Source: a virus (Duplodnaviria > Heunggongvirae > Uroviricota > Caudoviricetes). Taken from it: 31,991 bases of DNA. The position numbers were made by a program, and so were the translations under genes. Under the pieces are notes generated by a model. That model was given only the letters and a program-made list of their open reading frames with translations. It was not told where the DNA came from and did not search any database. The DNA is taken from the IMG/VR virus record IMGVR_UViG_2563366883_000019, positions 1 through 31,991 of that record; one strand, 5' to 3'. Shown piece after piece: positions 14,694-31,991 of this stretch (the first letter of the stretch is position 1; every line of letters begins with the position of its first letter).

Positions 14694-16667
14694 TTATGCT
14701 GCTACGGCATTCACACCAACAGTAAGACTTTCAATCAGCACAGGGTAAGTTGCCGCATTTCCGGTAATATCCGTAATTGCCAGCGCGTTGGCCTCAAAGG
14801 CTGCATTCGTCCATCTGGTCAGCGTAAACGGTTTTCCTGCTGCATTATCAAGCACCGGCGTGACGTTCAGCGAGCCACCACCCGGGAAGCGGAAAGTCAG
14901 CGTGTGCCAGTCGTGATCGAACGGACCATAACTACCAAGCCGCTGTGATGTGGTGTTTGCATGATACATCACATTGATGTTTGTTTTATCAGTCTGCAGA
15001 TAGAAGGCCGCAATATAACCCTCCTCTGATTCCGCTCCCGGCCATCCACTACCGCGCCAGTAAATACCCGCAGAATATTGATTTGCAGAAGCATTGAGAG
15101 ATACATCATCGGGGATTTTAAAGCGCAGCGTGATTTCACCGCCGTTATCGAACAGCTCCTTCCCCTTACCGGCATCAATTGCGTGCGATACTTTCCAGGT
15201 CTTTTTCTGTGCAAGACCATTTTCTGGTTTTTCAAGACGAAGGGCTTTTTTACCTGAACCACTGTCACTGACCAGCGTGTTTTTGACATCTGTCAGCGTC
15301 CAGCCCTGCGAAGCCAGAGCGGCATTTTCCGCATTCACATCATAAGCCAGCACTGACTGTATCTTTGTCGGGACAACGGCTTCAGGCTGAGTATCGCCAC
15401 TCTCCTGTGCTGGTTGCGATACGCCTCCGCCTGAAGAAACCGCGGCTTTTGTCACTTTCCCGGAAACAAAATCTGCCACTCTGCCCACATGCAGAAGAAT
15501 GGCTGTTGCCAGACGGTCGGAAATAATTCCGCGACGCGCCCATGAACCAAAGTGGGTTTTACGATCGGATGTTGTCCAGCTCTTCGCATCCGTTCGTCCA
15601 CCGGAACCATAATACCCGATAGCCGGAATATCCGGGTCTTCTGACGGTTCATTGGTCCCGACTTTCTGACCATTGTCATCCATCATAAACGGCACAAAGA
15701 AGATATTTTTACCGGCTTTGGTTTTGTATGCGCCATAGACGGCATCGTATTGCGCTGAATACGTCTCCTTCCAGTAGTACGTCGTGTCACCACAAATCCA
15801 GGGCACCAGAGAAGGAGAAGCACCAGCGCACTGACCGGATACTCCCGCCAGGTCAGAACGGTATTTTTCCACCATGGCATCAAACATGGCGGGCTGACTG
15901 GCGTACGCTCCCTGTTTTAAATCAAACTCGCCCTGCATCCAGACAACACAAAGCAGTATGTTTTTGGGGTTTGCCTTCAGCGCGGCCTGAGTGCGTGTCA
16001 GCAGGTCTTTATACAACGGCTTATCAACGCCCCATCGTTCAGATTTATCCGACGCTCCTGAACTTTCACTGAACGTTCCGTCAGCACCGGCTGTAAACGC
16101 AGAGCCACCACGACAGCACGGCACTAACAAAATACCCGCATTTTCCGGCATAAAGGGCAACAGCTTTTTGGCAATATGCAATCCCTGTCCGACACACCCA
16201 TACTGCTCTGCGCTGGCTTTCGGATGAGAAAAACGGCTCAAATCCTGCACATCATGCAGGCAGTGGTCCGCCGGAATGATGTCGTTATATGCACAGGCCG
16301 CACCACCCGGTGTCACCGTACTGCGACGCGCCAGCTGTTTAATACGCGGGTCCGGACGGTCATATGTCTCCGGCAGCGGCAGGCCTTCACCATACGCCAT
16401 GCCGTTTGACTGTCCGGCCAGCGCAATGACAAAGTAATATTCTGGTTCAACAACAACAGTCCGGGTACCATCTCCCCCCGGTGAAACTACCGGAGAGGTC
16501 ATATCCCCTTCAGCGACTATAGCCTGGATAAATTCAGCACCATAACCCGCGTTTGAGATAATCGGACTACCATAGGGTTGCCAGCCTTCCTTCAGTTTTT
16601 GCGTCAGTTTTCCTGCGAGGTCTGACGGCGATGATGCCCTGACCACGTCATAGTGTTTAAATGCCAT
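14694..16667 (-). CDS. nanS-p: Prophage-encoded sialate O-acetylesterase NanS-p (SGNH/SASA esterase domain plus C-terminal lectin-like region, about 657 aa)
   Basis: ALAGQSNGMAYGEG esterase motif of the NanS/YjhS family; large size and position downstream of the Q/late leader match the nanS-p gene found downstream of stx in EHEC phages. Preferred ATG at 16667 has GGGAGG 4 nt upstream; the ORF track start at 16697 is TTG. Confidence 0.75.
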   Translation of the reverse strand: MAFKHYDVVRASSPSDLAGKLTQKLKEGWQPYGSPIISNAGYGAEFIQAIVAEGDMTSPVVSPGGDGTRTVVVEPEYYFVIALAGQSNGMAYGEGLPLPETYDRPDPRIKQLARRSTVTPGGAACAYNDIIPADHCLHDVQDLSRFSHPKASAEQYGCVGQGLHIAKKLLPFMPENAGILLVPCCRGGSAFTAGADGTFSESSGASDKSERWGVDKPLYKDLLTRTQAALKANPKNILLCVVWMQGEFDLKQGAYASQPAMFDAMVEKYRSDLAGVSGQCAGASPSLVPWICGDTTYYWKETYSAQYDAVYGAYKTKAGKNIFFVPFMMDDNGQKVGTNEPSEDPDIPAIGYYGSGGRTDAKSWTTSDRKTHFGSWARRGIISDRLATAILLHVGRVADFVSGKVTKAAVSSGGGVSQPAQESGDTQPEAVVPTKIQSVLAYDVNAENAALASQGWTLTDVKNTLVSDSGSGKKALRLEKPENGLAQKKTWKVSHAIDAGKGKELFDNGGEITLRFKIPDDVSLNASANQYSAGIYWRGSGWPGAESEEGYIAAFYLQTDKTNINVMYHANTTSQRLGSYGPFDHDWHTLTFRFPGGGSLNVTPVLDNAAGKPFTLTRWTNAAFEANALAITDITGNAATYPVLIESLTVGVNAVAA

Positions 16668-16868
16668 TATTCCTCCCGGCAGGGATAGTGTATGCAATCA
16701 AGATAAGGTGCGGGCTGACGTCAGTCATGGACAAGGGTTCAGAAACAGGAGGATGACTACAGCCCGCAATACGAAAAAGACCATACAGTTGCGCAGAGTG
16801 ATTACTGTCGGGTATTATTCGCCAGCTGAAAATTGATCACTTCACGTTTTGTTGTTTATTCCTTGCCA

Positions 16869-16897
16869 CCCGCGCTTCCCGGCGCGGGCTTTTTTTT
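16869..16897 (+). terminator. Plus-strand intrinsic terminator upstream of nanS-p
   Basis: CCCGCGC-TTCCCG-GCGCGGG followed by T8. Confidence 0.55.
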
Positions 16898-16903
16898 ATC
16901 CAA

Positions 16904-16929
16904 CAAGAAAGCCCCTCCGGAGAGGGGCT
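16904..16929 (-). terminator. Minus-strand hairpin terminator ending repeat copy A
   Basis: GCCCCTC-TCCG-GAGGGGC on the minus strand followed by TTTCTTGTT. Confidence 0.5.
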
Positions 16930-17136
16930 GGAGAGTAGCGCTATGTACCGTTCATGCATGGTGCAGGGTGCCTCCCGGTGAGTTCAGTATCAGCACCTGA
17001 ACCCGCACCAGAAAGGATAAGGGGTGTGACCAAACACCTGTCGCTGATATGCCCCTCCGCACAGGGGGATTCACCATGCCATATTTTTTTAACAAACTTC
17101 CCGCTGGCCAGACAATAATCGCCAGCCTGAATTGTG
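16904..17136 (-). repeat. Copy A of a diverged element of about 230 bp (candidate structured RNA) in the late leader
   Basis: Shares conserved 5' and 3' blocks with copy B; the central block differs; internal helices are retained by compensatory changes. Confidence 0.6.
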
Positions 17137-17387
17137 AGTAACGTGGCATTTTACGGGAAAACTGTTTTCTGCAGTAAAAAGGCCCGCCGGAGCGAGCCTG
17201 GAAGGATAGCGGTCATGTGATGCCGGTTTCCCGGTAACTCAGCATCGGTATCTGAGTCAACGTTTTCTCTACTGGGTCATTTCCGATACGTTCCGCCTTC
17301 CGGCAGACTTTCATCACGTCAGAAAATATAGCACCCTGAGTAACAGGACAGTACTCAGAATTCAGGAAACTGTGACACATCCTGCAC

Positions 17388-17412
17388 AGAAAAGCCCCTC
17401 CGGAGAGGGGCT
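17388..17412 (-). terminator. Minus-strand hairpin terminator ending repeat copy B
   Basis: Identical GCCCCTC/GAGGGGC hairpin followed by TTTTCTG on the minus strand. Confidence 0.5.
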
Positions 17413-17606
17413 GAAGTATAGCCTAATTTCTGTCTGTCGCATGGTGCCAGGTGCCTCCCGGTAAATTCAGCCTGGCTACTGAATTTGCATGTTCGCTGGA
17501 TCATACACTTTGCCAGATGCCCCGCCGCTGAGGGGGATTCACCACGCGATGCAATTTTTAACAAATTCTCCGGCAGCCAGACAATCATCAAGCTGTGGAA
17601 TTGTGA
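17388..17606 (-). repeat. Copy B of the same element
   Basis: Same conserved blocks as copy A; the overlapping ORFs in the two copies are not conserved at protein level. Confidence 0.6.
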
Positions 17607-17926
17607 GGTATTTAAAAATTTCGCAGCCTCTTGCCACCCGCTTTTCACAAAAATCGTATGTAGAAGGCCGCAGCGTAACTATCACTGATGAATTCAGGAC
17701 CCCCAGAGGCTACGGCTCAGTTTGGATTGTGGCGGCCGGAATCGAACCAGCTCCCAGCGGTGCGCTGCCGATTACAATACGCGCGGCGATCCGCTACATG
17801 ACTAGTATTTTCACAGTCGCCTGTCTGCTAGCTCGCCATTGAGCTTCACCACAACGATAAGAGCACTGCGCACACCTTTCACCAATTCCACGAGGTCTGC
17901 GGGTTCAATGCTCTTACCTGTTGTGC

Positions 17927-17958
17927 AAACAAAAAGCCCCGACATTTCTGCCGAGGCC
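17927..17958 (-). terminator. Candidate tR'-like terminator downstream of the putative late promoter
   Basis: Minus-strand hairpin GCCTCGGCA-GAAA-TGTCGGGGC (two G:U pairs) followed by TTTTTGTTTG. Confidence 0.45.
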
Positions 17959-18064
17959 TTTACCTAATCTAGCCAGTATGCCGATCCTAAATATTATCGA
18001 CGACCGAGGTAAATCAGGATTTCTCTTTCGCTTCTCAGTGCGCTTTTGCTCCGAGCATACACAA

Positions 18065-18093
18065 AACATACTACTTTCATTTCTCGAAAGCAA
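18065..18093 (-). promoter_or_regulatory. Candidate late promoter (pR'-like) just downstream of the Q-locus genes
   Basis: Minus-strand TTGCTT, 17-nt spacer, TATGTT, located about 25 nt after the stop of the 204-aa ORF and about 100 nt upstream of a terminator hairpin. Confidence 0.3.
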
Positions 18094-18117
18094 CGCATTT
18101 ACAAAAAATATTTTGCA

Positions 18118-18732
18118 TCATCCAGCAATCACTAGAAGTTCTTTCTCCAATTCTCGCTTCATTGCATAAAACATTTCTGAATCAAGGACCCTCTCGCACC
18201 ACACGACCCGCCTCCGGCAATACTGAATATCAACTCCTGTTATCTGAGAAATCATCCTGGCGATATCTTGCGTGCTGTCGCGATTGCAATATCGCCTAAT
18301 AGCTACATCACGGACAGGGCTTTCACGATGAAAGGTCTCAACCATCACACGTTCAACGAAAGCAGCATCATCGGATTCTTTGGCGAGAGCAATGATATTA
18401 CCTGCCGATGACTGAGGGATGACCAGTTCTCGGGCTTTCTGATGGAGTTCATCTCCACGTAGTCCGTCTTCTTCATACAGACGCATGACAACAGACTCAA
18501 TCTGCTTAGCTTTGTCATCGCTCCACTGACTGCGAATCATCAGTCGCCCAATAACGTTAATTGCACCACAAGGAGAATCATCACCAGCGTTAACATTTCC
18601 CCATACCTGTAGCATGTAGTGAACCCATGCTTTCTGACGAGAGTTAATGATTTTCTTCGGATGCCTCCATATGCGGCGGAAATGAGCATCATTAATAAAG
18701 TTAACCATGCCGAATACTGGGGTTAGCCGCAT
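18118..18732 (-). CDS. Putative late antiterminator Q-like protein (about 204 aa)
   Basis: Position after ninH and immediately upstream of a promoter-like element plus terminator; ATG overlaps the stop of the upstream 80-aa ORF (TGATG). Assignment is positional; no motif recognised confidently. Confidence 0.4.
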   Translation of the reverse strand: MRLTPVFGMVNFINDAHFRRIWRHPKKIINSRQKAWVHYMLQVWGNVNAGDDSPCGAINVIGRLMIRSQWSDDKAKQIESVVMRLYEEDGLRGDELHQKARELVIPQSSAGNIIALAKESDDAAFVERVMVETFHRESPVRDVAIRRYCNRDSTQDIARMISQITGVDIQYCRRRVVWCERVLDSEMFYAMKRELEKELLVIAG

Positions 18733-18974
18733 CACAGCCCCCATCCTTTACAATGACACCACACTTCAAACATTCGTTTCACAACTTCACGGCAGTAGAA
18801 ACCGTCAGCATCACGTGTCAGGTCATAGCGATCTCCGTGCTTCAGTCTCATATAGCATTCGAATAATCTGTTCATATACTCTTCGCCATGAACTCCGCTA
18901 TTACGCTGCTCATGCGCTTTTCCAGACGACCTGAATAAAGCCATGCGTTCAGGCACCTGCTGAATATCACGCAT
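18732..18974 (-). CDS. Hypothetical protein at the Q locus (80 aa from internal ATG), Cys/His-containing
   Basis: Begins MRDIQQVPER and starts 8 nt before the ninH stop; the ORF track frame extends to 19079, overlapping ninH. Translationally coupled to the 204-aa ORF. Confidence 0.4.
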   Translation of the reverse strand: MRDIQQVPERMALFRSSGKAHEQRNSGVHGEEYMNRLFECYMRLKHGDRYDLTRDADGFYCREVVKRMFEVWCHCKGWGL

Positions 18975-19167
18975 CAGTAGCTTTCCCCTTATCCCATCCA
19001 CGATGAACCATAAGGACACCGTTGACGACGGCGTGCCGTTTGCCTTCTTTATCACCGACATATTTTCTGACCGTAGCACGATTACAGTTCAGTTTTCGTG
19101 AAACTTCAGTCATATTGCCTCGTGCCTGGATAAGCAATTCCGGTATTGTTTGAATTGTGGCGTTCAT
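18967..19167 (-). CDS. ninH: NinH (66 aa)
   Basis: Matches lambda NinH motifs (TIPELLIQARGNMTEVSRKLNCNRATVRKYV, HAVVNGVLMVHRGW). Confidence 0.85.
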   Translation of the reverse strand: MNATIQTIPELLIQARGNMTEVSRKLNCNRATVRKYVGDKEGKRHAVVNGVLMVHRGWDKGKATDA

Positions 19168-19526
19168 ATGTTCTCCAGTTCGGTGATTTTTATCCCCACT
19201 CTACCGCCAAGCACTTTCACGCCGCGAATTACGCGAATGTCATCGAATTGCACGTCGTCTTCCGCAAATCCGGCGTGGATAAGAGAGTCGAGTAAACCTT
19301 TCAGGATGTTATCGAGGTCGCGACGGCGGGAATCTGGTGGTTCAGCAATAATTGTGATGCGAAGTCGTGATTTAGTGAAAATGTCTAATCTGAGTTGCCG
19401 GATGATTTGCTGTACGTCTTTTCGGTATTTCTGGCCTTTATCGCTGATGTAGTACTGGCTTCCCCGTCTTCGCCAGTAGGTATTCACCGTCGGCGGCCAG
19501 GGAAGCACAAACTCATATTCATTCAT
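19164..19526 (-). CDS. rusA: Holliday junction resolvase RusA (120 aa)
   Basis: RusA signature LPWPP..N.YWR...ISDKGQKYR and catalytic region DSRRRDLDNILKGLLDSL. Confidence 0.9.
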   Translation of the reverse strand: MNEYEFVLPWPPTVNTYWRRRGSQYYISDKGQKYRKDVQQIIRQLRLDIFTKSRLRITIIAEPPDSRRRDLDNILKGLLDSLIHAGFAEDDVQFDDIRVIRGVKVLGGRVGIKITELENI

Positions 19527-19816
19527 GACTTAATCTTCCCCTCCTTCAGCAATATCGCCAGCGTCCTGATCACGCCTTCCAGGTGGTAAAGTCTGGCGTC
19601 GTTGTTGTCGAGAATGCGAGTACGGCGATCGATTTCATTATGGCAGTCACTACAGGCCCATGCAGCCAACAGATCATCTGGCTTTGTTCCCGTTCCGCAA
19701 ATTCCAGCCATTCGGTAATGCGCCAGAACTGTAGTTTCAGGGTTGCCATTGCATACGCCATAAATCCGTACCTGGCATTCTCTGCCGCGCGCTTCTTTGC
19801 GTAGGTTTGTCATCAT
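19523..19816 (-). CDS. ybcO: YbcO-like DUF1364 putative nuclease (about 97 aa)
   Basis: RKEARGRECQVRIYGVCNGNPETTVLAHY...CSDCHNEID matches DLP12 YbcO; preferred ATG at 19816 has GAGGA about 6 nt upstream (the ORF track frame starts at 19852). Confidence 0.8.
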   Translation of the reverse strand: MMTNLRKEARGRECQVRIYGVCNGNPETTVLAHYRMAGICGTGTKPDDLLAAWACSDCHNEIDRRTRILDNNDARLYHLEGVIRTLAILLKEGKIKS

Positions 19817-19836
19817 CTTATTCCTCATGCAGTAGG

Positions 19837-20028
19837 CTATCCGGAGTGACAATTAAATCTTGCTCGACGCCTTAGCCACCGGATATCCCACAGGTGAGCC
19901 GTATAGTTGAAGGTTTTAACATCAGATTCTTTGGGGACTGGCCTGGGTTTATTTCGGGAGCGTTTGGTTGGAAGGTAATTGCAGTTTTCACAGACGATAT
20001 CGGTGATGCTTCGTCGCTGTCGTCTCAT
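19837..20028 (-). CDS. ninE: NinE-like protein (63 aa)
   Basis: [27 protein letters not shown]...[15 protein letters not shown] resembles lambdoid NinE; position between ninB and ybcO matches the DLP12 nin order. Confidence 0.65.
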
Positions 20029-20435
20029 TCGTACCTCCTGTCGGTAAATCTGACACCCTGATCCACGGCCCAGGATGTTGTGTACTCAATCAGGCTTGCC
20101 ATACGCTTCACGCTCATTTGCGCACTGCTTTCGCGGATATTGACGTATTCACCTTCAAGACCTGGCAAAACATCAGCTTCCTGTTTTGTCGCCACGGCAT
20201 GACCGCTGATTAACAAAACTTTCCACTGTTCTGGTTTTAGCCACCTGCCGCACCACTTAACCTGGCGGGATATATCAGCGACCATCGCGTGAAATTTTGC
20301 ATTTTGAGCGAGATTACGCTTGTAATCGGTGATACGGATCGTAACGGGTTTGTCTTTATCGAGAGTTGTTGCAAGGATTGCGTTAATGGCGAATTGTTGC
20401 TGCTGCTTACTTCGGAGGAAGATAGTCTGGTTCAT
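20025..20435 (-). CDS. ninB: NinB recombination protein (136 aa)
   Basis: NinB-like motifs (QQQFAINAI...[25 protein letters not shown]); first gene of the nin block. Confidence 0.85.
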
Positions 20436-20462
20436 TATTCCCTCTCACTGGATTTTCCCAAC

Positions 20463-20482
20463 AAAAAAGGAGCCGAAGCTCC
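20463..20482 (-). terminator. Candidate terminator after the ORF6N gene
   Basis: GGAGC-TTCG-GCTCC hairpin followed by TTTTTTGTT on the minus strand (A-run on the other side, so possibly bidirectional). Confidence 0.45.
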
Positions 20483-20489
20483 TTTAGTT

Positions 20490-21158
20490 TCAGAATTCAA
20501 ATTGTCTTGCCCGCAGACTTTTCAGCATTGGCATGGCCCGCTGGATAACGGAACTTGACATGTCGAGACGTGTTACCTCCCTTAGTAGCGCGTCTCTGTT
20601 CTTCGTCACCATGTAGATGGTCTCAAACGCAATGTCATACAGCTTGTTCGTGTATGAGGAGTTCAGCTCTTTCATAATGGGATACAGGTGTTTGCTGAGG
20701 TCCTGGGCTTTTTCCATCCAGAGCTGCATGTAGCAAAGGAGGATGATTTCTTCGGCTGTGAATTGTGGCTGAATCTGCGGCTGCTGTTCGGTTGGTGCTG
20801 TTTTTCCCTGGCTGAAATAGCAGTCTTCCAGTTTTTCGAACACTTCCCACGCCCGATCGGTTTCGAGCATTTTTGCATGACGGGCTGCGCCGCGTTCTGT
20901 CCAGAGGATGAGGGAGCGAACGTTACGGGCAATTTTCACAGAAGGTCTTAAAGACATGCTGTGCTTAAATTCGCGCAACTTCTCATTCTCAAGTAAAAAG
21001 TAGTGCTTACCGATAACAAATCGTCCAGAATTCCGATTGAAATTTTTTCGGATGTAATCTGGTTCTGTGCCATATAAGCTGGCAAGAAGCTCTGTAGTCA
21101 CCACAGGTATATTACTAAATGAAATTATGGAGAGGGACTCCACGGAGATGGTTTTCAT
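20490..21158 (-). CDS. ORF6N / KilA-N-like DNA-binding protein (putative antirepressor-type regulator, 222 aa)
   Basis: N-terminal region (TTELLASLYGTEPDYIRKNFNRNSGRFVIGKHYFL...RSLILWTERGAARHAKMLETDRAWEVFEKLEDCYF) resembles ORF6N/Ant N-terminal domains; followed by a hairpin with a T-run. Confidence 0.65.
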   Translation of the reverse strand: MKTISVESLSIISFSNIPVVTTELLASLYGTEPDYIRKNFNRNSGRFVIGKHYFLLENEKLREFKHSMSLRPSVKIARNVRSLILWTERGAARHAKMLETDRAWEVFEKLEDCYFSQGKTAPTEQQPQIQPQFTAEEIILLCYMQLWMEKAQDLSKHLYPIMKELNSSYTNKLYDIAFETIYMVTKNRDALLREVTRLDMSSSVIQRAMPMLKSLRARQFEF

Positions 21159-21390
21159 GCTTTGTGTCCTACTTGATATTTTGATTTACCCCTTTTGAGA
21201 GGGTGACCGGGCGCTCAAAACCGCAAGTAGTCGGCGGGCATATTCCCATTGCTGGTATTGTATTAGCCGCACGCCCGGTCATAAACCAAGAAGACTGGAC
21301 ACAAAAAAACCGCATGTCTGTCGGGCGCGGTAACCGCTACTTGCTAAGGTGTTTTGAGCACCTGACGCAGAGTATCCGACAGAATGTGTG

Positions 21391-21426
21391 GTGTGTCAAC
21401 ATTTCCTTGTGTAGATGTTGACACCC
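21391..21426. promoter_or_regulatory. Perfect 10-bp inverted repeat (GTGTCAACAT-N12-ATGTTGACAC) carrying TTGACA hexamers in the divergent intergenic region
   Basis: Read directly from the sequence; lies 77 bp upstream of the DUF805 gene start and 230 bp upstream of the ORF6N gene start. Confidence 0.45.
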
Positions 21427-21502
21427 TATTAGGTAAAACATTAACGTTGTTTTAAATTGTTAATAATTATCAATTTAATATTAATGTTTGGAGTATAAAA
21501 GC

Positions 21503-21877
21503 ATGAGAAAATCCCCTTTGGCATGGTATACGGATGTTCTTTTTAATAACTACTTCAATTATTCAGGGCGAGCCAGTCGAAGAGAGTTCTGGTGGTATTA
21601 TCTGTTTAATTTAATATTCTTGGGAGTTCTTTTTTTTATCGGATATACATTAGATAATACTGGCATTAGTTATGGGTTTTATATACCTTGCGTTTACGTA
21701 TTAGCTACGATTATTCCATCCATTACATTGAAAGTCCGCAGACTCCATGATATTGGGTTAAGTGCTTGGTACTTGTTTATCTGGTGCATTCCGTATATTG
21801 GTGGCTTTATATTGTTCGTTATGTACTGTATCCCGTCAGAAAAAGGGGATAATAAATACGGTGCATATAGTATTTAA
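21503..21877 (+). CDS. DUF805-family inner-membrane protein (YhaH/YhaI-like, about 124 aa)
   Basis: RREFWWYY and RRLHDIGLSAW motifs with multiple TM segments; preferred ATG at 21503 has GGAG 9 nt upstream (the ORF track frame starts at 21488); low-GC region. Confidence 0.75.
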   Translation: MRKSPLAWYTDVLFNNYFNYSGRASRREFWWYYLFNLIFLGVLFFIGYTLDNTGISYGFYIPCVYVLATIIPSITLKVRRLHDIGLSAWYLFIWCIPYIGGFILFVMYCIPSEKGDNKYGAYSI

Positions 21878-21896
21878 TCCCCGCCAGATAGTCGCA

Positions 21897-22583
21897 TCAA
21901 AAAGTACTGGTTATCTTATCTATTAGATCAAATGTCTTCTCATCAATGTACCAGTACTTTTTATCATCATTTGGGTATTCAACGAAAACCGTCCATAAAA
22001 CCTCTTCCTTTTTAATGAAAGATAAAAGAAAAGTCTCTATATCCTTTGAATTGTCTTTGGGAATAACTGTAATAAATGAAGTCCATTTTTCCAACTTTTT
22101 ACTTTTTATCTGTTTGGCCTCCTTAGGTAGAAAAATTTTAGCATTTGATTCACGTTCCAGTCGGTCTAATAATTGTTTGGCATATATATCAACAGGAACA
22201 CTTATGTCACTTGCTTTATGACGTAATTCAATAGTTGGTGTATACTCGTTCGAAAAATAGAAAACACCATCACTGGGTGATGTTATCAGAGTCTTTTCTA
22301 AATATGTGTATTTGTATGTTATTGGATTAAACCAATAACAGTACCATTCTGGCTTTAATTGCCCGCTATAAGATGTGTTATTATTGTGAACCTTACACAC
22401 AGGATAAATGTTTTCTATATCAGTCCACTTACTTTTATCCTCTTTTTTTTGTGTGTCTATGACGTTTGAGGAGTGTTTTTGGTTGAACACTTGAATATTT
22501 AAAAAAACTAAAAGTATGTTTCCGATAATAGATGCAATAAGCATTTTCTTCAGTTTTGAGTTATCCATATGCATCCCCTTCAT
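21897..22583 (-). CDS. Low-GC hypothetical protein with N-terminal signal anchor (about 228 aa)
   Basis: Preferred ATG at 22583 overlaps the upstream gene's stop (ATGA); the ORF track frame starts at 22592 on TTG. N-terminal TM LIASIIGNILLVFL; Lys/Asn/Tyr-rich composition; no recognised domain. Confidence 0.6.
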   Translation of the reverse strand: MKGMHMDNSKLKKMLIASIIGNILLVFLNIQVFNQKHSSNVIDTQKKEDKSKWTDIENIYPVCKVHNNNTSYSGQLKPEWYCYWFNPITYKYTYLEKTLITSPSDGVFYFSNEYTPTIELRHKASDISVPVDIYAKQLLDRLERESNAKIFLPKEAKQIKSKKLEKWTSFITVIPKDNSKDIETFLLSFIKKEEVLWTVFVEYPNDDKKYWYIDEKTFDLIDKITSTF

Positions 22584-23056
22584 TGTGGACAATTACTCTT
22601 TGTCATAATTATAACTAAGTCATTATATTTCGTGTTTATTATGTTATAATGATATTTGAATATATAATTATACTCCTGCATCATTTTACACTCGCCAGAA
22701 TTTAATTTTTTTTGTATTTCTAGGCTCATTAAGTTTTTAATCTCTTCACCATCAAAAAATGGCGACATATCTTCATTAATCCCATAAATATTATAGTAAT
22801 GATTAAGTGTATTTCCTTCTACGGTTGCAGCAATCCATGTAGTATAATCATCTACTTTAATAGGGAATTTTTTCTTGGATAGTTCATTTTTTAAGTATGA
22901 GGCAATTTTATCTGCATCTTCTTTGTTCGATAAAATATCATCAATTTTATTATCACCGAACTCAGTTGCAATTATCTTTACAAAGATCAGCAGAATAATA
23001 AACATTAATGCTGTTCCTGTTTTTTTTATTGCTCCTAATATTTTGTTTCCTGTCAT
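22580..23056 (-). CDS. Low-GC hypothetical protein with N-terminal signal anchor (158 aa)
   Basis: N-terminal TM ALMFIILLIFVKIIA; translationally coupled to the downstream 228-aa ORF; a TTGACA -35-like hexamer lies upstream; no recognised domain. Confidence 0.6.
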   Translation of the reverse strand: MTGNKILGAIKKTGTALMFIILLIFVKIIATEFGDNKIDDILSNKEDADKIASYLKNELSKKKFPIKVDDYTTWIAATVEGNTLNHYYNIYGINEDMSPFFDGEEIKNLMSLEIQKKLNSGECKMMQEYNYIFKYHYNIINTKYNDLVIIMTKSNCPQ

Positions 23057-23233
23057 CTTGCAAATCTAACATAAAATTTAATGAGTCTTATTAATAAATT
23101 TAATTTCTTATGAGTTGTCAACCTTCCATCAAGCAAACCGTGATCTAACAGCATGACTGTCTGCTTGATATGTGTTGTCGTCAACACAGTACAGTCCTTG
23201 AATACATATAACAAATTTGTTATGTTGATACCT

Positions 23234-23563
23234 ATGAACTACACTATCGAATACTACAGTGAAGAGGTCCGGCTGGAAGTCGATCAGCTTCCATTGAGTA
23301 TGCGTGTCCGATACAAACATCTCATTGAACGTATGAAGGTATACGGCAGCAATCTCGGAGAACCTCATACCAGCGCCTTTGGTGATGGGCTTTTCGAACT
23401 CAGAATTAAAGGCAACGATGGGATTGCACGTGTTTTTTACTGCACTCTGACAGGGAAACGCATCATTATGCTGCATAGCTTCATTAAGAAAACGCAGAAA
23501 ACACCGCCAGCCGAACGCAAAAAAGCTGAAGCCAGAATGAAGGAGGTTAAGCATGACTGGTAA
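23234..23563 (+). CDS. Type II toxin, RelE/ParE superfamily, phage Gp49-like (HigB-type arrangement, 109 aa)
   Basis: Gp49-like motifs (GDGLFELRIKGNDGIARVFY...IIMLHSFIKKTQKTPPAE); 11-nt overlap with the downstream HTH gene; the ORF track frame starts further upstream at 23153. Confidence 0.8.
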   Translation: MNYTIEYYSEEVRLEVDQLPLSMRVRYKHLIERMKVYGSNLGEPHTSAFGDGLFELRIKGNDGIARVFYCTLTGKRIIMLHSFIKKTQKTPPAERKKAEARMKEVKHDW

Positions 23564-23861
23564 ACGCATTACACCTACCATGACACACGACGAAATGGCA
23601 GCCAAATGGATGGAGGATCCGGCTTTCAAAGCAGAATACGACGCCATCGCCGACGAGTTCGCACTGCTTGATGAAATGCTGGCAGCACGAAAAGAAGCTG
23701 GCTTAACCCAGGCTGAAGTTGCCGAACGTATGGGAACAAAAGCGACTGCGATCACCAGAATGGAAAGCAATCTTGCATCAGGTACAAGCGGCCCATCATT
23801 TGCCACACTGAAAAAATTCGCCCGTGCTACAGGGAAAAAACTCCAGATCCGCTTCGTTTAA
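23553..23861 (+). CDS. XRE-family HTH antitoxin (HigA-like, 102 aa)
   Basis: AGGAGG lies 6 nt upstream of the ATG; HTH motif LTQAEVAERMGTKATAITRME; toxin-first gene order. Confidence 0.8.
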   Translation: MTGKRITPTMTHDEMAAKWMEDPAFKAEYDAIADEFALLDEMLAARKEAGLTQAEVAERMGTKATAITRMESNLASGTSGPSFATLKKFARATGKKLQIRFV

Positions 23862-23915
23862 CTCCCCACTACCGCGCCGTCATTCTGGCGGCGCTTTACC
23901 CCAGAGAAATATCAA

Positions 23916-24161
23916 TCACCGGATTACCACATCCCACTCCGGCTCCTGCCATCTCAAATCCGGTGAATCATTTCTCTCAGGAATAACCATTACGTCCTTT
24001 TCCCTTCGCTCCCTTTCTATCGCCATCACAGCCAATGCTGCAACCATGATGTATTTTTGTTCGTCGGTTCCTGTTTCATAACGACGCATGAGGGTAAACT
24101 CGGGGCGATCAGTAACCTCAATGATTTCGTTAATTTCTTTAATTTCGCGAGGAATATCCAT
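23916..24161 (-). CDS. Hypothetical small acidic protein (81 aa); coding status uncertain
   Basis: ATG at 24161 with AGGAG 9 nt upstream; its start codon overlaps the start codon of the divergent plus-strand gene at the CATG palindrome 24159-24162. The ORF track frame extends to 24185. Confidence 0.35.
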   Translation of the reverse strand: MDIPREIKEINEIIEVTDRPEFTLMRRYETGTDEQKYIMVAALAVMAIERERREKDVMVIPERNDSPDLRWQEPEWDVVIR

Positions 24162-24834
24162 GGGTTTAGTCTCCTTTGATATCACATGCCCGCACTGTTT
24201 AAAAGAGCGAGCTGTTATTGAGGCATTTGCCGAAAAACAAATTGAAAAAACACCTTTTTTTAACGTCGCTTTTGTATGCAGAAGTTGTCATCGAGGAGGT
24301 GTTGCTATTGTTGAAATCCCATCAGACCACTATCACGGTCCCATGGCGGAAAGCCAGAAAAAAGACCTCGATATTCTGATTTCAGGAAATAGCCAGTACC
24401 GTTTCCGCAAGATCTATCCTGTGGTCAAAAAAATTACCGCACCAGAATATACACCCCCGGTTGCAGACCGTACTTTTGTTGAGGCAAAAGAGGATTTACA
24501 GAGGAGGCGGTACGACACAGTGGTTATTCTTTGTCGCAGAGTCCTCGATATCTCCACGAAAAAACTGCTCGGCGATGAAGCAGGAAAAGAATCGCTGTCG
24601 CAACGTATTCAGATGATTTACAAAAAAGGCCTGATCACTGAACAGATGAAGGAATGGGCTCATATTGTACGAATTGATGCCAATAAAGCAGTTCATACAG
24701 ATGAAGTTTTCACACCAATTGAGGCAAGCCAGATCCTGAGTTTTACCGAAATGTTTTTAGTCTACGCCTTCACTCTGCCTGCAATGGTGGAAGCCAGACG
24801 TGAACAAAAAAGATCAGATTCAGCCTCTATATGA
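24160..24834 (+). CDS. Zinc-ribbon protein with helical C-terminal domain (possibly DUF4145/HEPN-like, about 224 aa)
   Basis: ATG at 24160 with GAGG 7 nt upstream; CPHC...CRSC zinc-ribbon pair at the N-terminus; C-terminal region contains an R-x7-H segment (RIDANKAVH). Domain assignment is from memory and unverified. The ORF track frame starts at 24088. Confidence 0.6.
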   Translation: MGLVSFDITCPHCLKERAVIEAFAEKQIEKTPFFNVAFVCRSCHRGGVAIVEIPSDHYHGPMAESQKKDLDILISGNSQYRFRKIYPVVKKITAPEYTPPVADRTFVEAKEDLQRRRYDTVVILCRRVLDISTKKLLGDEAGKESLSQRIQMIYKKGLITEQMKEWAHIVRIDANKAVHTDEVFTPIEASQILSFTEMFLVYAFTLPAMVEARREQKRSDSASI

Positions 24835-24866
24835 ATCACTTTTCTGAACACGTAAGCCCCCGTCAT

Positions 24867-25298
24867 TCACGACGGGGAGAACATCAATCCCTCTGCACTC
24901 CCTCGCCAGAATGCCAGCACACGCTGCATCGTTTCGCTGTTACGGCACTCGCGACAAATTGTGTTGTAGCGTCTGTCGTAGCGCCGTATTTCCCCATCTG
25001 GTAATGCCCGGATAAGGTCTGGATCAACGACAACCGGTTTCTTCGACTTTGCCCTTGAGAGTTTTTTGCGGGCATTTTGCCAGTCCTTACGAGCCTGTTC
25101 AGACGGGAATACTCCGTAACCGGAATTGTAAACATCACCACTGGCGGCCAGCTCCATGCATAAACGACCGACAGACGCATGACTGACACCAATTTCATCC
25201 GATAACTGCCGAATCGTGCCTCGTCCGTTAAGGCGTACGAATTCCACGATCAGCCCCTTAATTTTTTCCCGCTCTTCTGGTGTAAATGCTCTTGTCAT
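24867..25298 (-). CDS. Winged-helix/HTH DNA-binding protein of unknown role (143 aa)
   Basis: ATG at 25298 with GGAGGT 5 nt upstream; HTH-like segment TIRQLSDEIGVSHASVGRLCMEL; IS1 lies 36 bp upstream of the start. Confidence 0.6.
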   Translation of the reverse strand: MTRAFTPEEREKIKGLIVEFVRLNGRGTIRQLSDEIGVSHASVGRLCMELAASGDVYNSGYGVFPSEQARKDWQNARKKLSRAKSKKPVVVDPDLIRALPDGEIRRYDRRYNTICRECRNSETMQRVLAFWRGSAEGLMFSPS

Positions 25299-25389
25299 AA
25301 GCACCTCCGGAGATCACTTTGTTGTCGGTGAATGGGTGATGCTGCCAACTTACTGATTTAGTGTATGATGGTGTTTTTGAGGTGCTCCA

Positions 25390-25665
25390 GTGGCTTCTGT
25401 TTCTATCAGCTGTCCCTCCTGTTCAGCTACTGACGGGGTGGTGCGTAACGGCAAAAGCACCGCCGGACATCAGCGCTATCTCTGCTCTCACTGCCGTAAA
25501 ACATGGCAACTGCAGTTCACTTACACCGCTTCTCAACCCGGTACGCACCAGAAAATCATTGATATGGCCATGAATGGCGTTGGATGCCGGGCAACTGCCC
25601 GCATTATGGGCGTTGGCCTCAACACGATTTTACGTCACTTAAAAAACTCAGGCCGCAGTCGGTAA
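25390..25665 (+). CDS. insA: IS1 InsA (91 aa, GTG start)
   Basis: Identical in recognisable motifs to IS1 InsA ([43 protein letters not shown]...). Confidence 0.95.
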
Positions 25666-26087
25666 CCTCGCGCATACAGCCGGGCAGTGACGTCATCGTC
25701 TGCGCGGAAATGGACGAACAGTGGGGCTATGTCGGGGCTAAATCGCGCCAGCGCTGGCTGTTTTACGCGTATGACAGTCTCCGGAAGACGGTTGTTGCGC
25801 ACGTATTCGGTGAACGCACTATGGCGACGCTGGGGCGTCTTATGAGCCTGCTGTCACCCTTTGACGTGGTGATATGGATGACGGATGGCTGGCCGCTGTA
25901 TGAATCCCGCCTGAAGGGAAAGCTGCACGTAATCAGCAAGCGATATACGCAGCGAATTGAGCGGCATAACCTGAATCTGAGGCAGCACCTGGCACGGCTG
26001 GGACGGAAGTCGCTGTCGTTCTCAAAATCGGTGGAGCTGCATGACAAAGTCATCGGGCATTATCTGAACATAAAACACTATCAATAA
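25584..26087 (+). CDS. insB: IS1 InsB frame (expressed as InsAB' transposase by -1 frameshift)
   Basis: InsB motifs ([21 protein letters not shown]...[13 protein letters not shown]); TTAAAAAACTC slippery site at about 25640. Confidence 0.95.
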
Positions 26088-26328
26088 GTTGGAGTCATTA
26101 CCAGGACAGTCGTTTTGTTTTATGTGGGTTAAATGGCAAAACACCAAGCCCATATATTCATGCTGCACGTGAAGTCGTCAGAAGCAACATTGGAGTACAA
26201 CAAATCCATACACTGGCGCAGGCTCTTGAGTTTGCAAGAGAAAATTCCGAGTGCGACTGCCCTGAATGCCAGCACGAAAAGGGAAAAACAACTCACAAAA
26301 CAGCAAACCAGGCAACCTTCCACTGAAA

Positions 26329-26358
26329 TAAAAATCCGGCAGCGCAGGCTACCGGATT
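26329..26358 (-). terminator. Hairpin with T-run on the minus strand, upstream of the 690-aa gene
   Basis: AATCCGG-(12 nt loop)-CCGGATT followed by TTTTATTT on the minus strand. Confidence 0.3.
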
Positions 26359-26433
26359 TCTCCCTGCGTCACCGTATTCGGAGAAATCAGACAAAGGGCC
26401 GCTAATTCTAATCCAGCCAGAGGTTTAAATACA

Positions 26434-28506
26434 ATGAGCGCTGATAAACAGACTTTTGCACTACACTGCGAAGCAAAAAACGATAAAGTCAGAAAACGCC
26501 TTGGCATCAAAGGCGGTTTTTTCTGGACCGAGGCCAGAAAACTTTCTGTCGCAGTTTCCCGCTGCATTGCAGCCATGGACGATGCAGGCTACGACGAGGA
26601 TGATTTCAAAAAACCCGTTCGCGTAAATTTCCCCGTCGTGAATGACCTTCCACCGGAAGGCGTGTTTGATACTGAATTCTGCAACCGCTATGAAAAAGGC
26701 GGTAACGATGGCATCACCATGATGGCTATCCCCTTCGATGACAACATCAACGGTGAAGATGCCACAACTGCTGGCGATGACAACGATAACCTGGACGGAA
26801 CTATTCCGGATGATGTGGAGAAAAGCGAATCCCCGGACAGCGACGATGACTGTTCTGAGTGTGAAATTCCCGTCGCCACTCTGAGCCTTACTCATCGCTT
26901 CCTTCACCTCTTCTTATTCAGCAAAGATGAAGATGGAAAATACCGGCATCATGCCACACCAGAACAACGCAATAACGTGATCCGTATGGAGATGGACACA
27001 GAGGACAGTTACCTTCAGAGCCTGCTTACTGCTGTGCGCGCCGCGCATCATGAACTGGATAAACTGACGAACTATCACCTTAGTCGCCTGGCTGAATCTG
27101 TAGGGAAAGCATTCCCCCACTCTGCAAATCATCGCATCAGCCCGGCTGAATTCGACAAGTTCATTTCCACCTGGATGAAAACTGACTACCTTGATCAGGG
27201 CCTGCTGACAAAAGAATGGCAGAACGGAAATTATGTTTCAGGCATTACCCGTACGCCTTCCGGTGCTAACGCTGGCGGCGGAAATATTACCGATCGTGGT
27301 GAAGGATTCAAACATGATAAGACATCACTCGCACGAGATGTAGCCACCGGCGTTCTGGCCCGTTCAATGGATGTGGATATTTATAACCTGCACCCAGCAC
27401 ACGCAAAACGCGTTGAAGAAATCGTGTCAGAGAATAAGCCGCCCTTTTCTGTTTTTCGCGACAAATTTATCGCCATGCCCGGTGGGCTGGATTATTCCCG
27501 CGCCATTGTGGTGGCTTCCGTGAAAGAAGCACCAATCGGCATTGAGGCCATCCCGGCACGCGTGACTGAATATCTCAACAAAGTGTTGACCGAAACCGAT
27601 CACGCTAACCCGGATCCGGAAATCGTGGAAATTGCCTGCGGTCGCTCATCAGCACCGATGCCGCAGCGCGGAACAGCAGAAGGAAAACATGGCGATGAAG
27701 AAAAGCAACAAGCATCGGACACAATGGCTAATGAACAGGCAGCGCCTGAATCAGTGGAAGAAATTCCAGTTAAACATAATGAGGACACGCAATCACTGGA
27801 AAATGTCTCATCTGTAGAAACGAAATACCAGGAACTGAGGGAGGAACTCAATAAAGCCAGGGAAAACATCCCCCCAAAAAATCCAGTCGATGCCGACAAA
27901 TTACTGGCTGCCTCGCGTGGAGAATTCGTTGAAGGCATCAGTAACCCTGCTGATCCGAAGTGGGTGAAGGGGATCCAGACTCGCGACACTGAGGACCAGA
28001 ATCAGTCCAAAGTGGAACAAATTGCCCCAGAAGCGGGACAAAACAGCCCGGATACGCAACAAAACGGGTCAGAAGAGCAACAGCCAGGGCCAGTAGCGCA
28101 ACCGGAGCTGGAAAAAAACTGCCGCGTCTGTGGTCAGACTGGCGGGGGTAACTGCCCTGACTGTAGTGCGGTAATGGGCGATAGCACTTACACAGAAACT
28201 TTTGGAGAAAATGACGCCGCTGATGGAGAAGACTCAGCACAAACTGAGGAGAAGATCATTCAGGAAAACTCTGTTGATGCCGCTCAGGAGGGCGAAACCG
28301 TTGTTCAGAACGAGCCAGGCAGTGATACGTCCGGCGATGACGCCAATTCTGAGCCAGTAACTCTCGACTGGAAAAGACAGCTCGTGATTGCCGCCGTCTA
28401 TGGTTTGTGCGCCAACCCCGCATGTATAGCCACAGCGCCAGCAATCCCTGATATCGCCATCATGATTGCCAACAGGCTTGAAAATTTCGGAGGTGATAAA
28501 TCATGA
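26434..28506 (+). CDS. Large acidic hypothetical protein with two Cys clusters (690 aa), first gene of the gam-bet-exo operon
   Basis: Stop overlaps the gam ATG (ATGA). Long Asp/Glu-rich stretches; CSECE and [15 protein letters not shown] clusters; C-terminal hydrophobic segment. No recognised domain. Confidence 0.7.
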
Positions 28507-28799
28507 ATGCCTGGCTTATCCCCGATCGCATTGAAGAGCAGTCATGGGCACGACACTACCAGCAAATTGCCCGTGAAGAAACTGAAGCTGAGCTGGCAGA
28601 CGACCTGGAAAAAGGTCTGCCCCAACACCTGTTTGAATCGCTATGCATCGATAATCTGCAACGTCACGGGGCCAGCAAAAAAGCTATTTCCCGTGCATTT
28701 GATGACGATGTCGATTTTCAGGAACGCATGGCAGAACACATCCGCTACATGGCTGAAACCATCGCCCGTCACCAAATTAATATTGATTCAGAGGTATAA
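28503..28799 (+). CDS. gam: Gam, RecBCD inhibitor (short form, 98 aa)
   Basis: Near-identical to lambda Gam ([47 protein letters not shown]). Confidence 0.95.
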
Positions 28800-28804
28800 A
28801 ACGG

Positions 28805-29590
28805 ATGAGTACAGCACTCGCAACGCTGGCAGGGAAGCTGGCTGAACGTGTCGGCATGGATTCTGTCGACCCACAGGAACTAATCACCACTCTTCGCCAG
28901 ACGGCATTTAAAGGTGATGCCAGCGATGCGCAATTTATCGCATTGTTGATCGTCGCCAACCAGTACGGCCTTAATCCCTGGACGAAAGAAATTTACGCCT
29001 TCCCTGACAAGCAGAACGGCATCGTTCCGGTGGTTGGCGTTGATGGCTGGTCCCGCATTATCAATGAAAACCAGCAGTTTGATGGCATGGACTTTGAGCA
29101 GGACAATGAGTCCTGTACATGCCGGATTTACCGCAAAGATCGCAATCACCCGATCTGCGTTACCGAGTGGATGGATGAATGTCGCCGCGCACCATTCAAA
29201 ACCCGCGAAGGCAGAGAAATCACCGGACCGTGGCAGTCGCATCCCAAACGGATGTTACGGCACAAAGCCATGATTCAGTGTGCTCGCCTGGCCTTCGGAT
29301 TTGCTGGCATCTATGACAAGGATGAAGCCGAGCGTATTGTCGAAAATACTGCATATACTACAGAACGTCAGCCGGAACGCGACATCACCCCGGTTAACGA
29401 AGAAACCATGTCGGAAATTAACGCCCTTCTTACTTCCATGGAAAAAACGTGGGATGACGACCTGTTGCCGCTCTGTTCCCAGATTTTTCGCCGCAACATT
29501 TACACATCTTCAGAACTAACACAGGCTGAAGCTGTGAAGGTTCTTGGATTCCTGAAACAGAAAGTCACAGAGCAGAAGGTAGCAGCATGA
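28805..29590 (+). CDS. bet: Bet / Red-beta single-strand annealing recombinase (261 aa)
   Basis: Near-identical to lambda Bet from the N-terminus ([66 protein letters not shown]). Confidence 0.97.
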
Positions 29591-30267
29591 CACCGGACAT
29601 TATCCTGCAACGTACAGGGATCGACGTGAGAGCTGTCGAACAGGGGGATGATGCGTGGCACAAATTACGGCTCGGCGTCATCACCGCTTCAGAAGTTCAC
29701 AACGTGATAGCAAAACCCCGCTCAGGAAAGAAATGGCCTGACATGAAAATGTCCTACTTCCACACTCTGCTGGCTGAGGTCTGCACGGGTGTGGCCCCGG
29801 AAGTTAACACCAAAGCCCTGGCATGGGGAAAACAGTACGAGAACGACGCCAGAGCTCTGTTTGAGTTTACTTCCGGCGTGAATGTTACTGAATCCCCGAT
29901 CATCTATCGTGACGAAAGTATGCGTACAGCCTGCTCTCCCGATGGTTTATGCAGTGACGGTAAAGGCCTTGAGCTGAAATGTCCGTTTACCTCCCGGGAT
30001 TTCATGAAATTCCGGCTCGGTGGTTTCGAGGCAATAAAATCAGCTTACATGGCCCAGGTGCAATTCAGCATGTGGGCGACGCGAAAAGATGCCTGGTACT
30101 TTGCCAACTATGACCCACGTATGAAGCGTGAAGGCCTGCATTATGTCGTGGTCGAGCGGGATGAAAAATACATGGCTGGTTTTGACGAAATGGTGCCAGA
30201 GTTCATCGAAAAAATGGACGAGGCACTGGCTGAAATTGGTTTTGTATTTGGGGAGCAATGGCGATAG
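29587..30267 (+). CDS. exo: Lambda-type 5'-3' exonuclease Exo (226 aa)
   Basis: Near-identical to lambda Exo ([65 protein letters not shown]); ATG overlaps the bet stop (ATGA). Confidence 0.97.
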
Positions 30268-30305
30268 CCGTAGCAACGAGGTGCAAATGATATGACAGTT
30301 AAGGA

Positions 30306-30566
30306 ATGCTACCTGTGTTCGTTCTGATCCAGCGCGGGCAGTCCTTCGTCGACGCCAACAACTATCCGGTTGAAGTCTGCAAAATCACTCTGACGCAGGT
30401 AATCTTCCGCAGGCTGGATGGGAGAACCAGAGCCGCTTCAATTAGCGCATTTAATGCAGAATTTGAGCGAATCGATCACAACGAACTACACATGATTAAA
30501 GCAGAAATTGAGAAGGAAAAGCATATTGCCAGCCTTCGAAAAATGCGCCGCATATCAATCAACTGA
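30306..30566 (+). CDS. Hypothetical small protein between exo and xis (86 aa); start uncertain
   Basis: ORF followed by a clean hairpin plus T5 terminator; SD spacing at the annotated ATG is too short, so the real start may differ. Confidence 0.35.
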   Translation: MLPVFVLIQRGQSFVDANNYPVEVCKITLTQVIFRRLDGRTRAASISAFNAEFERIDHNELHMIKAEIEKEKHIASLRKMRRISIN

Positions 30567-30569
30567 CAA

Positions 30570-30588
30570 CCGCCTTCGGGCGGTTTTT
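30570..30588 (+). terminator. Intrinsic terminator between the exo-distal small ORF and xis
   Basis: CCGCC-TTCG-GGCGG followed by TTTTT on the plus strand. Confidence 0.55.
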
Positions 30589-30600
30589 AATGGCGAAAAT

Positions 30601-30972
30601 ATGGATTCACACAGTATCACCCTCAAAGAGGCCTGTAAGTTTCTCAAGATATCAAGGCCAACAGCTGTTAACTGGATACGAACGGGCCGACTACAGGCAA
30701 CCCGAAAAAATTCTTCCGGTAAAAGATCACCTTATCTCACAACCCGGCAAGCCTGCATTGCAGCACTTCATTCACCGCTGCATACTGTCCAGGTGAGCGC
30801 GGGTGATGGCATAACAGAGGAAAGAAAATGTCACTCTTCCGCAGAGGTGAAATATGGTACGCCTCGTACTCGCTCCCGGGCGGGAAGCGAATTAAGGAGT
30901 CTCTTGGCACAAAGGACAAGCGGCAAGCTCAGGAGTTGCACGACAAGCGAAAAGCAGAACTCTGGCGAGTAG
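30601..30972 (+). CDS. xis: Excisionase-like HTH protein (AlpA/Xis family); 3' end uncertain
   Basis: HTH resembling excisionases ([28 protein letters not shown]); located directly upstream of int; the frame as read overlaps int by 145 nt. The ORF track frame starts at 30508. Confidence 0.5.
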
Positions 30973-31991
30973 ACAGACTGGGGGATATGCCAGATGTCAC
31001 TTTCGAAGAAGCCTGCCTGAGATGGCTTGAGGAAAAAGCCGACAAGAAATCCATCGATTCCGATAAATCCAGAATCGCATTCTGGATTGAGCATTTCGAG
31101 GGAATAAGGATTAAGGATATATCGGAGGCAATGATCTACTCAGTTATCAGCAAAGCGTATAACCGAAAAACAAAGGAGAGATGGAAGTTGCAGGTGGAGG
31201 CTGCATTAAGAAAAGGGAAAGAACCACCAGCCTATATACCTAAATCGGTGAGCACGCAAACAAAAGCAACACACCTGGCAATGATCAAGGCTATTCTGCG
31301 CGCCGCAGAGCGAGACTGGAAATGGCTTGAAAAAGCACCTGTAATCAAAATACCTGCCGTAAAAAACAAACGCGTGAGATGGCTGGAAAAAGAAGAAGCC
31401 AGGAGACTCATTGATGCATGTTCTGATCCCCTGAAATCTGTAGTTAAATTTGCACTGGCAACTGGCCTGAGGAGATCAAACATTATTAATCTGGAGTGGC
31501 AACAAATCGATATGCAGCGACGTGTTGCCTGGGTAAACCCTGAAGACAGTAAGTCAAACCGCGCTATTGGGGTCGCACTGAATGACACTGCCTGCAAGGT
31601 GTTGCGTGATCAAATAGGCAAACATCACCGCTGGGTGTTTGTTTATACCACTGCTGCCAGAAGGCCTGACGGGACAATGACACCAAGCATCAGAAAGATG
31701 CGCCTGGACTATAACACATCGTGGTTAACAGCATGTCGTCGGGCAGGAATTGAAAATTTCCGTTTTCATGACCTCCGCCATACCTGGGCCAGTTGGTTAA
31801 TTCAGTCAGGTGTACCACTGTCAGTACTTCAGGAAATGGGCGGCTGGGAGTCTATCGAAATGGTGCGTAGGTACGCACACCTTGCACCTAATCATTTGAC
31901 AGAGCACGCGAGGAAAATTGACGACATATTGGGTGACGATGTCCCAAATTTGTCCCACCCTGAGGTTTTTGAGGATGCAAAGAAAGCATAA
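30828..31991 (+). CDS. int: Tyrosine integrase, DLP12 IntD-like (387 aa)
   Basis: [35 protein letters not shown]-terminus and catalytic-region motifs ([67 protein letters not shown]); GAGGAA SD; TAA stop at the window end. Confidence 0.95.

Follow-up and report, generated by a model that had tools for sequence, protein, structure and literature searches.

In Escherichia coli and Shigella, defective lambdoid prophages whose lesions carry an insertion sequence are commonplace, and IS1 is among the elements whose activity can remodel the DNA around them. Intramolecular transposition of IS1 produces deletions or inversions, both without a target-site duplication (TSD), and the gal region of E. 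coli offers one example of a deletion adjacent to IS1. The Rac prophage, in turn, is known for the sbcA-type activation of its recE and recT genes. Deletions that adjoin an insertion sequence while leaving the element intact have been described in E. coli, including an IS1-adjacent flhDC deletion (PMC12844343), and the recombination of two IS copies of the same orientation, with removal of the interval between them, has been modelled (PMC4300727). Here we analyze a stretch of 31,991 bp (the window), in which a single IS1 stands in the early region of a lambdoid prophage. Comparison with related prophages makes it very likely, in our judgment, that this scar is a deletion with IS1 at its junction, through which a prophage integrated in ynfG has lost its repressor, its genetic switch and its replication block.

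The prophage, its relatives and the IS1 element

The DNA of the window belongs to a lambdoid prophage of Stx-phage-like type (933W-type, podovirus-like) that has no stx, and its genes include those for an N4-gp56-type capsid protein, portal, terminase, lysis proteins, a SASA/NanS-type esterase, a nin region and an integrase. The SASA-family (NanS-p-like) esterase gene (14694-16697, minus strand), whose product also contains DUF1737 and DUF6645, lies downstream of a Q-like gene; in Stx phages the position held here by this esterase gene alone is occupied by stx and nanS-p. Positions 20434-31991, IS1 included, are identical (100% over 11.6 kb) to scaffold KB732454.1 of E. coli GCA_000351025.1, where int adjoins a truncated ynfG, beyond which lie ynfH, dmsD and clcB. 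The closest deposited phage is Escherichia phage PhiR5_2 (PV340546.1, 61.5 kb), with 98.4% identity across its late and nin region, the figure for recE through int being 99.1%; a literature search found no paper on it. PhiR5_2 and the ynfG prophages of E. coli EC2, SCU-104 and G6/7 resemble the window on both sides of the scar (97.5-99.9% nucleotide identity) and have their genes, from those for the tail to int, in the same order. Unlike the window, all four have 4.6-8.2 kb between the DUF977 gene and a gene of 128 codons, the two genes that flank the scar.

A preliminary description of this locus had given the span 25299-26433 for its observation on IS1. The element is indeed present, but it covers only 25335-26102 (plus strand); flanking DNA makes up the remainder of that span, with 36 bp on the left and, on the right, 331 bp that reach the ATG of a recE-like gene at 26434. 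The IS1 is complete (768 bp) and of the IS1A type: many E. coli genomes contain copies, annotated "IS1-like element IS1A family transposase", that are 100% identical to it over the full 768 bp. It is the common form of the element, and we found no signal of a chimeric IS1 such as recombination between two IS copies might leave as a trace. The left inverted repeat (IRL, 25335-25357, plus strand, GGTGATGCTGCCAACTTACTGAT) and the right inverted repeat (IRR, 26080-26102, minus strand, GGTAATGACTCCAACTTATTGAT) are identical at 18 of 23 positions. Each occurs once in the 31,991-bp window, with 0 occurrences expected from shuffled sequences, and the search with these terminal repeats finds one IS1 in the 32 kb. 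Both reading frames are intact: insA (25390-25665, plus strand) encodes 91 aa, and the insB frame (25584-26087, plus strand), which overlaps insA, encodes 167 aa. Also intact is the A6C -1 frameshift motif, TTAAAAAAC, which starts at 25639 on the plus strand. The Pfam models Zn_ribbon_InsA, HTH_Tnp_IS1 and DDE_Tnp_IS1 match an identical IS1 copy. In length, inverted repeats, insA and insB frames, frameshift site and domains the element thus has the attributes of the IS1 family. IS1 is found at a median of 11 places per E. coli genome.

Breakpoints, the missing block and the origin of the scar

On its left IS1 abuts the 9 bp CGGTGAATG, on its right the 9 bp AGGACAGTC, the same flanks that the preliminary description had given. 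Closer mapping of the boundaries, in which all repeat lengths of 5-14 bp were compared, finds no TSD, which bears out the earlier observation that IS1 here lacks a direct repeat of 8-9 bp; the present flanks of IS1 therefore do not derive from one simple insertion. The assignment of the element to the IS1 family is unaffected by this lack. Alignment with the EC2 prophage (L001) places the left deletion endpoint at 25334|25335 and the right endpoint at 26102|26103: window 15900-25334 corresponds to L001 1-9434 (99.86% identity) and window 26103-31991 to L001 14001-19889 (99.2%), the two alignments having the same order and orientation. The EC2 bases next to the endpoints differ from the end bases of IS1, so that the breakpoints are unambiguous, with no base duplicated or absent. 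Breakpoints are identical against 14 relatives, both closely related ynfG prophages (SCU-104, G6/7 and the nine further assemblies L005-L013 among them) and the phage PhiR5_2; in EC2, SCU-104, G6/7 and PhiR5_2 there is no IS1 at the position of the scar. The two target sites are 57% and 65% AT, compared with 50% for the window. IS1 favours AT-rich targets, and the composition of both sites is compatible with that preference, without discriminating between the routes of deletion considered below.

The collinearity of the flanks bears on a claim that had been left as a choice, namely that IS1 mediated either a deletion or an inversion. An inversion or larger rearrangement would have moved the missing block elsewhere, beside a second IS1, and intramolecular transposition of IS1 can indeed yield such inversions without a TSD. 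It would, however, put a copy of IS1 at both ends of the inverted DNA, each copy with one flank reversed, whereas here both flanks keep their native order and orientation around the only IS1 in 32 kb. A single IS1 between natively oriented flanks argues for deletion rather than inversion, and of the two alternatives we retain deletion and give inversion a probability close to negligible.

What lies between the breakpoints in the relatives amounts to 4,566 bp in EC2, 7,223 bp in SCU-104, 8,125 bp in G6/7 and 8,192 bp in PhiR5_2. The sizes vary because immunity modules are mosaic and because EC2 has an additional deletion of its own; judged from these alignments, the lost segment measured 4.6-8.2 kb, according to the immunity module of the ancestor. 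Alignment with intact related prophages, which had been put forward as the way to define the deleted segment, accordingly delimits it to 4,566-8,192 bp. We assigned the content of this gap from Pfam, PHROGs and the annotation of the relatives. Read from the DUF977 side, it begins with a gene of the DUF1627/YdaW family, only the last 21 nt of which survive in the window. There follow a gene for an IstB/DnaA-like ATPase (annotated DnaC), a gene for a protein of about 362 aa (O in the PhiR5_2 annotation) that PHROGs describe as a DnaD-like helicase loader or replication initiator, a small ORF between the O-like gene and cII, cII itself (Pfam Phage_CII) and a gene for a Cro-like HTH protein. Next are the divergently transcribed cI repressor gene (HTH_3 and Peptidase_S24), a gene for an N-like antiterminator, several small ORFs and kil. 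At the end nearest the recE-like gene are the first 163 nt of the 128-aa gene (phrog_2016), to which PHROGs assign no function.

The preliminary description had reported the immunity and replication genes as missing, and a tblastn search of the window with 18 proteins from the gap agrees: the only match is the 3' remnant of the 128-aa gene (26103-26323, E 8e-50), all others having E > 0.05. Pfam and PHROG profile scans of the ORFs in 20490-28506, a kind of search that could have overturned the earlier reading, likewise find no repressor or replication family, and no cI-type repressor among them. The gene set of a functional lambdoid prophage (cI-type repressor, cro, initiator and helicase loader) is thus absent from the window and present in relatives. 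The missing block had been sought between gam and ninB; its absence stands, although it did not lie directly between these two genes but between the recE-like and DUF977 genes. The only HTH_3 protein in the window (23553-23861) was considered as an immunity repressor and rejected; it is the partner of a Gp49/HigB-like toxin and is unchanged in intact relatives.

A separate loss is seen in two of the relatives. EC2 and GCA_032844505.1 (L007) lack about 2.56 kb with cro, the S24-type cI and the N-like gene, and there is no IS at the junction, which in EC2 lies at L001 12505-12540 (compare L008 1610-4173) and leaves the cII start 28 bp from the next gene. From these junctions, the EC2-type immunity loss appears to be independent of the one in the window, and we count at least two such losses in the ynfG prophage family.

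We infer the following course of events for the window. IS1 would have entered the early region of a Stx-phage-like lambdoid prophage integrated at ynfG in E. coli, and the DNA from the 3' end of the DUF1627 gene to codon 55 of the small gene downstream of kil would then have been lost. The result would be one intact IS1 whose flanks come from two different target sites, and flanks of such dual origin would show no TSD. Two routes can be envisaged. By adjacent deletion, IS1 would transpose intramolecularly to a second site a few kb away, with loss of the interval as a circle. Alternatively, two directly repeated IS1 copies would recombine homologously, which would remove the interval together with one copy. 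Both routes would yield exactly the observed product, and the sequence is compatible with either.

The same absence of a repeat bears on the order of the two events, since an IS-free deletion by illegitimate recombination might have come first and a simple insertion of IS1 at the junction later. That immunity deletions without an IS do occur is evident from EC2 and GCA_032844505.1. Yet a simple IS1 insertion gives a repeat of 8-9 bp or slightly longer, none of 5-14 bp is present, and relative to the other prophages no base is duplicated or missing at either end of IS1; the insertion would, moreover, have had to fall by chance on the very nucleotide of the junction. We consider this order of events highly improbable and prefer a deletion in which IS1 itself took part.

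A precursor, with IS1 and a 9-bp duplication at one of the endpoints, was not found by megablast with the junctions in 5,426 complete E. coli genomes, nor did exact junction patterns detect precursor junctions in species-representative genomes or viral contigs. In metagenome contigs the same patterns gave one match, ULWW01071588.1, which ends inside IS1. This contig corresponds to window 20635-25371 with 99.98% identity and stops 37 nt into the element; on this evidence the left IS1 junction, either as the lesion or as its precursor, appears to exist outside the source assembly. A further possibility is that the scar is an assembly artefact, in which two direct IS1 copies, each with its 9-bp duplication, were collapsed into one and an intact block between them was dropped. 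The source is a scaffold of a short-read draft assembly, IS1 is multicopy in E. coli, and the left junction recurs elsewhere only in the contig that breaks off 37 nt into IS1, all of which would suit a collapse. Against it, the scaffold crosses IS1 without any stretch of N and does not differ from the window over 11.6 kb, and a collapse would need read-pair links from the DUF977 gene to the recE-like gene over 5-9 kb left unplaced. Linking by read pairs across such an unplaced interval is unusual for paired-end assemblers. We regard a collapse as very unlikely and treat the scar as a deletion in the chromosome.

Retained genes, transcription and consequences for the prophage

To the left of the scar, the first gene is that of a 143-aa DUF977 protein (24867..25298, minus strand; Pfam DUF977, E 1e-25; phrog_142, E 4e-40); phrog_142 carries the label "Ren-like exclusion protein", and the gene is annotated LygF in PhiR5_2. 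Its start lies 36 bp from IS1, as had been reported, and its Shine-Dalgarno sequence, GGAGGTG, is kept. Between this gene and IS1 are the last 6 codons and the stop of the DUF1627 (YdaW-family) gene (25314..25334, minus strand), whose counterpart in EC2 is the CDS at L001 9414-10184 (minus strand), with the match ending at 9434. On the other side, IS1 is followed directly by the 3' remnant of the phrog_2016 gene (26103..26326, plus strand), 224 nt that encode residues 56-128 and the stop and have no in-frame start; the EC2 counterpart is the CDS at L001 13838-14224, and the window match starts at L001 14001. The first intact gene to the right is a RecE-family ORF of 690 aa (26434..28506, plus strand), assigned by Pfam Exonuc_VIII, phrog_607 and annotations, and followed by gam, bet, exo, a DUF4222 gene and int, among which Pfam matches Gam, YqaJ and integrase.

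The RecE-family ORF covers positions 1-618 of the 883-position phrog_607 profile, and its Exonuc_VIII match is confined to residues 55-197. From these profile matches the C-terminal nuclease part seems to be missing, yet the ORF is conserved directly ahead of a complete Gam/Bet/Exo set. Further along, window 26103-31991 shows 47 mismatches with EC2, of which 45 lie in 29766-30503 (about 740 bp), where exo ends and the DUF4222 gene is located; this clustering indicates a probable recombination patch within an otherwise near-identical region. The sole excisionase-like signal is a Pfam HTH_17 match (30508-30972, plus strand; profile positions 3-32 of 51) that overlaps the start of int at 30828. 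In EC2 the same spot is annotated by PGAP as an HTH pseudogene without a C-terminus, a state common to the relatives.

From ninB to gam the window retains ORFs for an Ant-type anti-repressor, a DUF805 membrane protein, two PHROG families of unknown function, a Gp49/HigB-like toxin with an HTH_3 partner, a DUF4145 protein, the DUF977 protein and the RecE-family protein. The toxin and its HigA-like HTH_3 partner (23153-23861, plus strand) and the DUF4145 gene (24088-24834, plus strand) are on the strand opposite to that of the neighboring nin-side genes. We suggest that the HigB/HigA-like pair and the DUF4145 gene are accessory, moron-like cargo, which would stay in a locked-in prophage.

The preliminary description had further proposed that IS1 may have replaced the promoter of the DUF977 gene, a suggestion that the scan for promoters does not support. 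A consensus scan of 24800-26500 finds one sigma-70-like site (25342..25369, plus strand; CTGCCA, 16 nt, TATGAT), located in IRL, which is the inward-facing promoter of IS1 itself. The scan shows no other such site, and the minus strand facing the DUF977 gene, in and near IS1, is empty. By eye, IRL also contains an outward TTGGCA facing the DUF977 gene, which we rejected for want of an acceptable -10 sequence at 16-18 nt. In intact relatives the DUF977 gene begins 15 nt downstream of the DUF1627 gene and belongs, with the same direction of transcription, to the pR-side operon. It follows that the deletion took the upstream part of this operon and its native promoter, pR; no promoter within the 36 bp was replaced.

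On the right side, insA and insB read toward the recE-like gene, and read-through from insAB into it is conceivable; a consensus scan finds no outward promoter in IS1 directed at this gene. Between the stop of the phrog_2016 remnant and the start of the recE-like gene is a predicted RNA hairpin (26333..26358, plus strand; MFE -23.7 kcal/mol for 26315-26385, z -3.4) that is followed by only three U, and a terminator scan makes no call at 26333-26358. The hairpin may hinder any read-through from IS1, and it could represent an N-sensitive terminator that once served the pL operon. One could picture the prophage as a fixed and harmless island in which the recE-like, gam, bet, exo and int genes, codirectional with insAB, are expressed at a low constitutive level, a form of sbcA-like domestication; we consider this very unlikely.

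Judged from the gene content of the relatives, the deletion removed the repressor and its operators, pL and pR, cro, cII, N, kil and the genes for both replication proteins. The lambda origin lies in O, and by analogy the origin of replication has probably gone as well. Transcription from pR would no longer cross the nin region to reach Q, so the late and lysis genes should be silent; and since pL and N are lost, the operon of the recE-like gene, gam, bet, exo and int is left without its native promoter. Having no repressor to cleave and no means of replication, the prophage would be locked in the chromosome. We infer from this gene content that it should be defective, or cryptic, in the sense of being neither inducible nor able to replicate. 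The loss of kil and of the induction circuit would also remove a cost to the host.

The late, lysis, nin and recombination genes of the window are full-length ORFs with 98-99% identity to PhiR5_2, in line with the earlier statement that late, lysis and recombination genes are retained, and from this the scar looks like a single recent lesion rather than the product of long-term decay. The prophage, at more than 30 kb, looks nearly complete and would score as "intact" in callers based on gene counts, yet the window has none of the genes required for replication or for the lysis-lysogeny switch; it should be labelled defective.

Comparison with known deletions and defective prophages

In its general character the locus is similar to the defective lambdoid prophages of E. 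coli K-12 (Rac, DLP12, Qin and e14) and to the IS-decayed Stx-like prophages of Shigella and EHEC, where regulatory or replication functions are likewise lost and an IS is present at the lesion. The likeness extends to gene content, in that DUF977, DUF1627, kil and recE-like genes are types common to the early regions of the phage family of the window and of Rac-like prophages. The decayed prophages differ from the window, which keeps full-length late, lysis, nin and recombination ORFs. We regard the locus as a case of ordinary prophage decay, given that the IS1A element, the phage backbone and IS deletions without a TSD are all already known; its value is that of a case resolved to the nucleotide, in which one IS1 event would have immobilized a Stx-phage-like prophage while sparing its accessory genes.

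A second point of reference is the sbcA-type activation of recE and recT in Rac, in which, as here, a recombination operon without its native promoter and repressor comes to lie downstream of foreign DNA, here with transposase genes that point at the operon. As differences, in the window no outward promoter was found, a stable hairpin lies between IS1 and the recE-like start, and the RecE-like protein is without the C-terminal part of its profile. We therefore treat the analogy as a lead only.

The closest counterparts are the IS1-adjacent and IS1 × IS1 deletions of E. coli, as at flhDC, which likewise consist of an intact IS1 with loss of DNA on one side, no TSD and collinear flanks. We see no mechanistic difference between these deletions and the one that we propose here; what is particular to the scar is its location, in the early region of a ynfG prophage.
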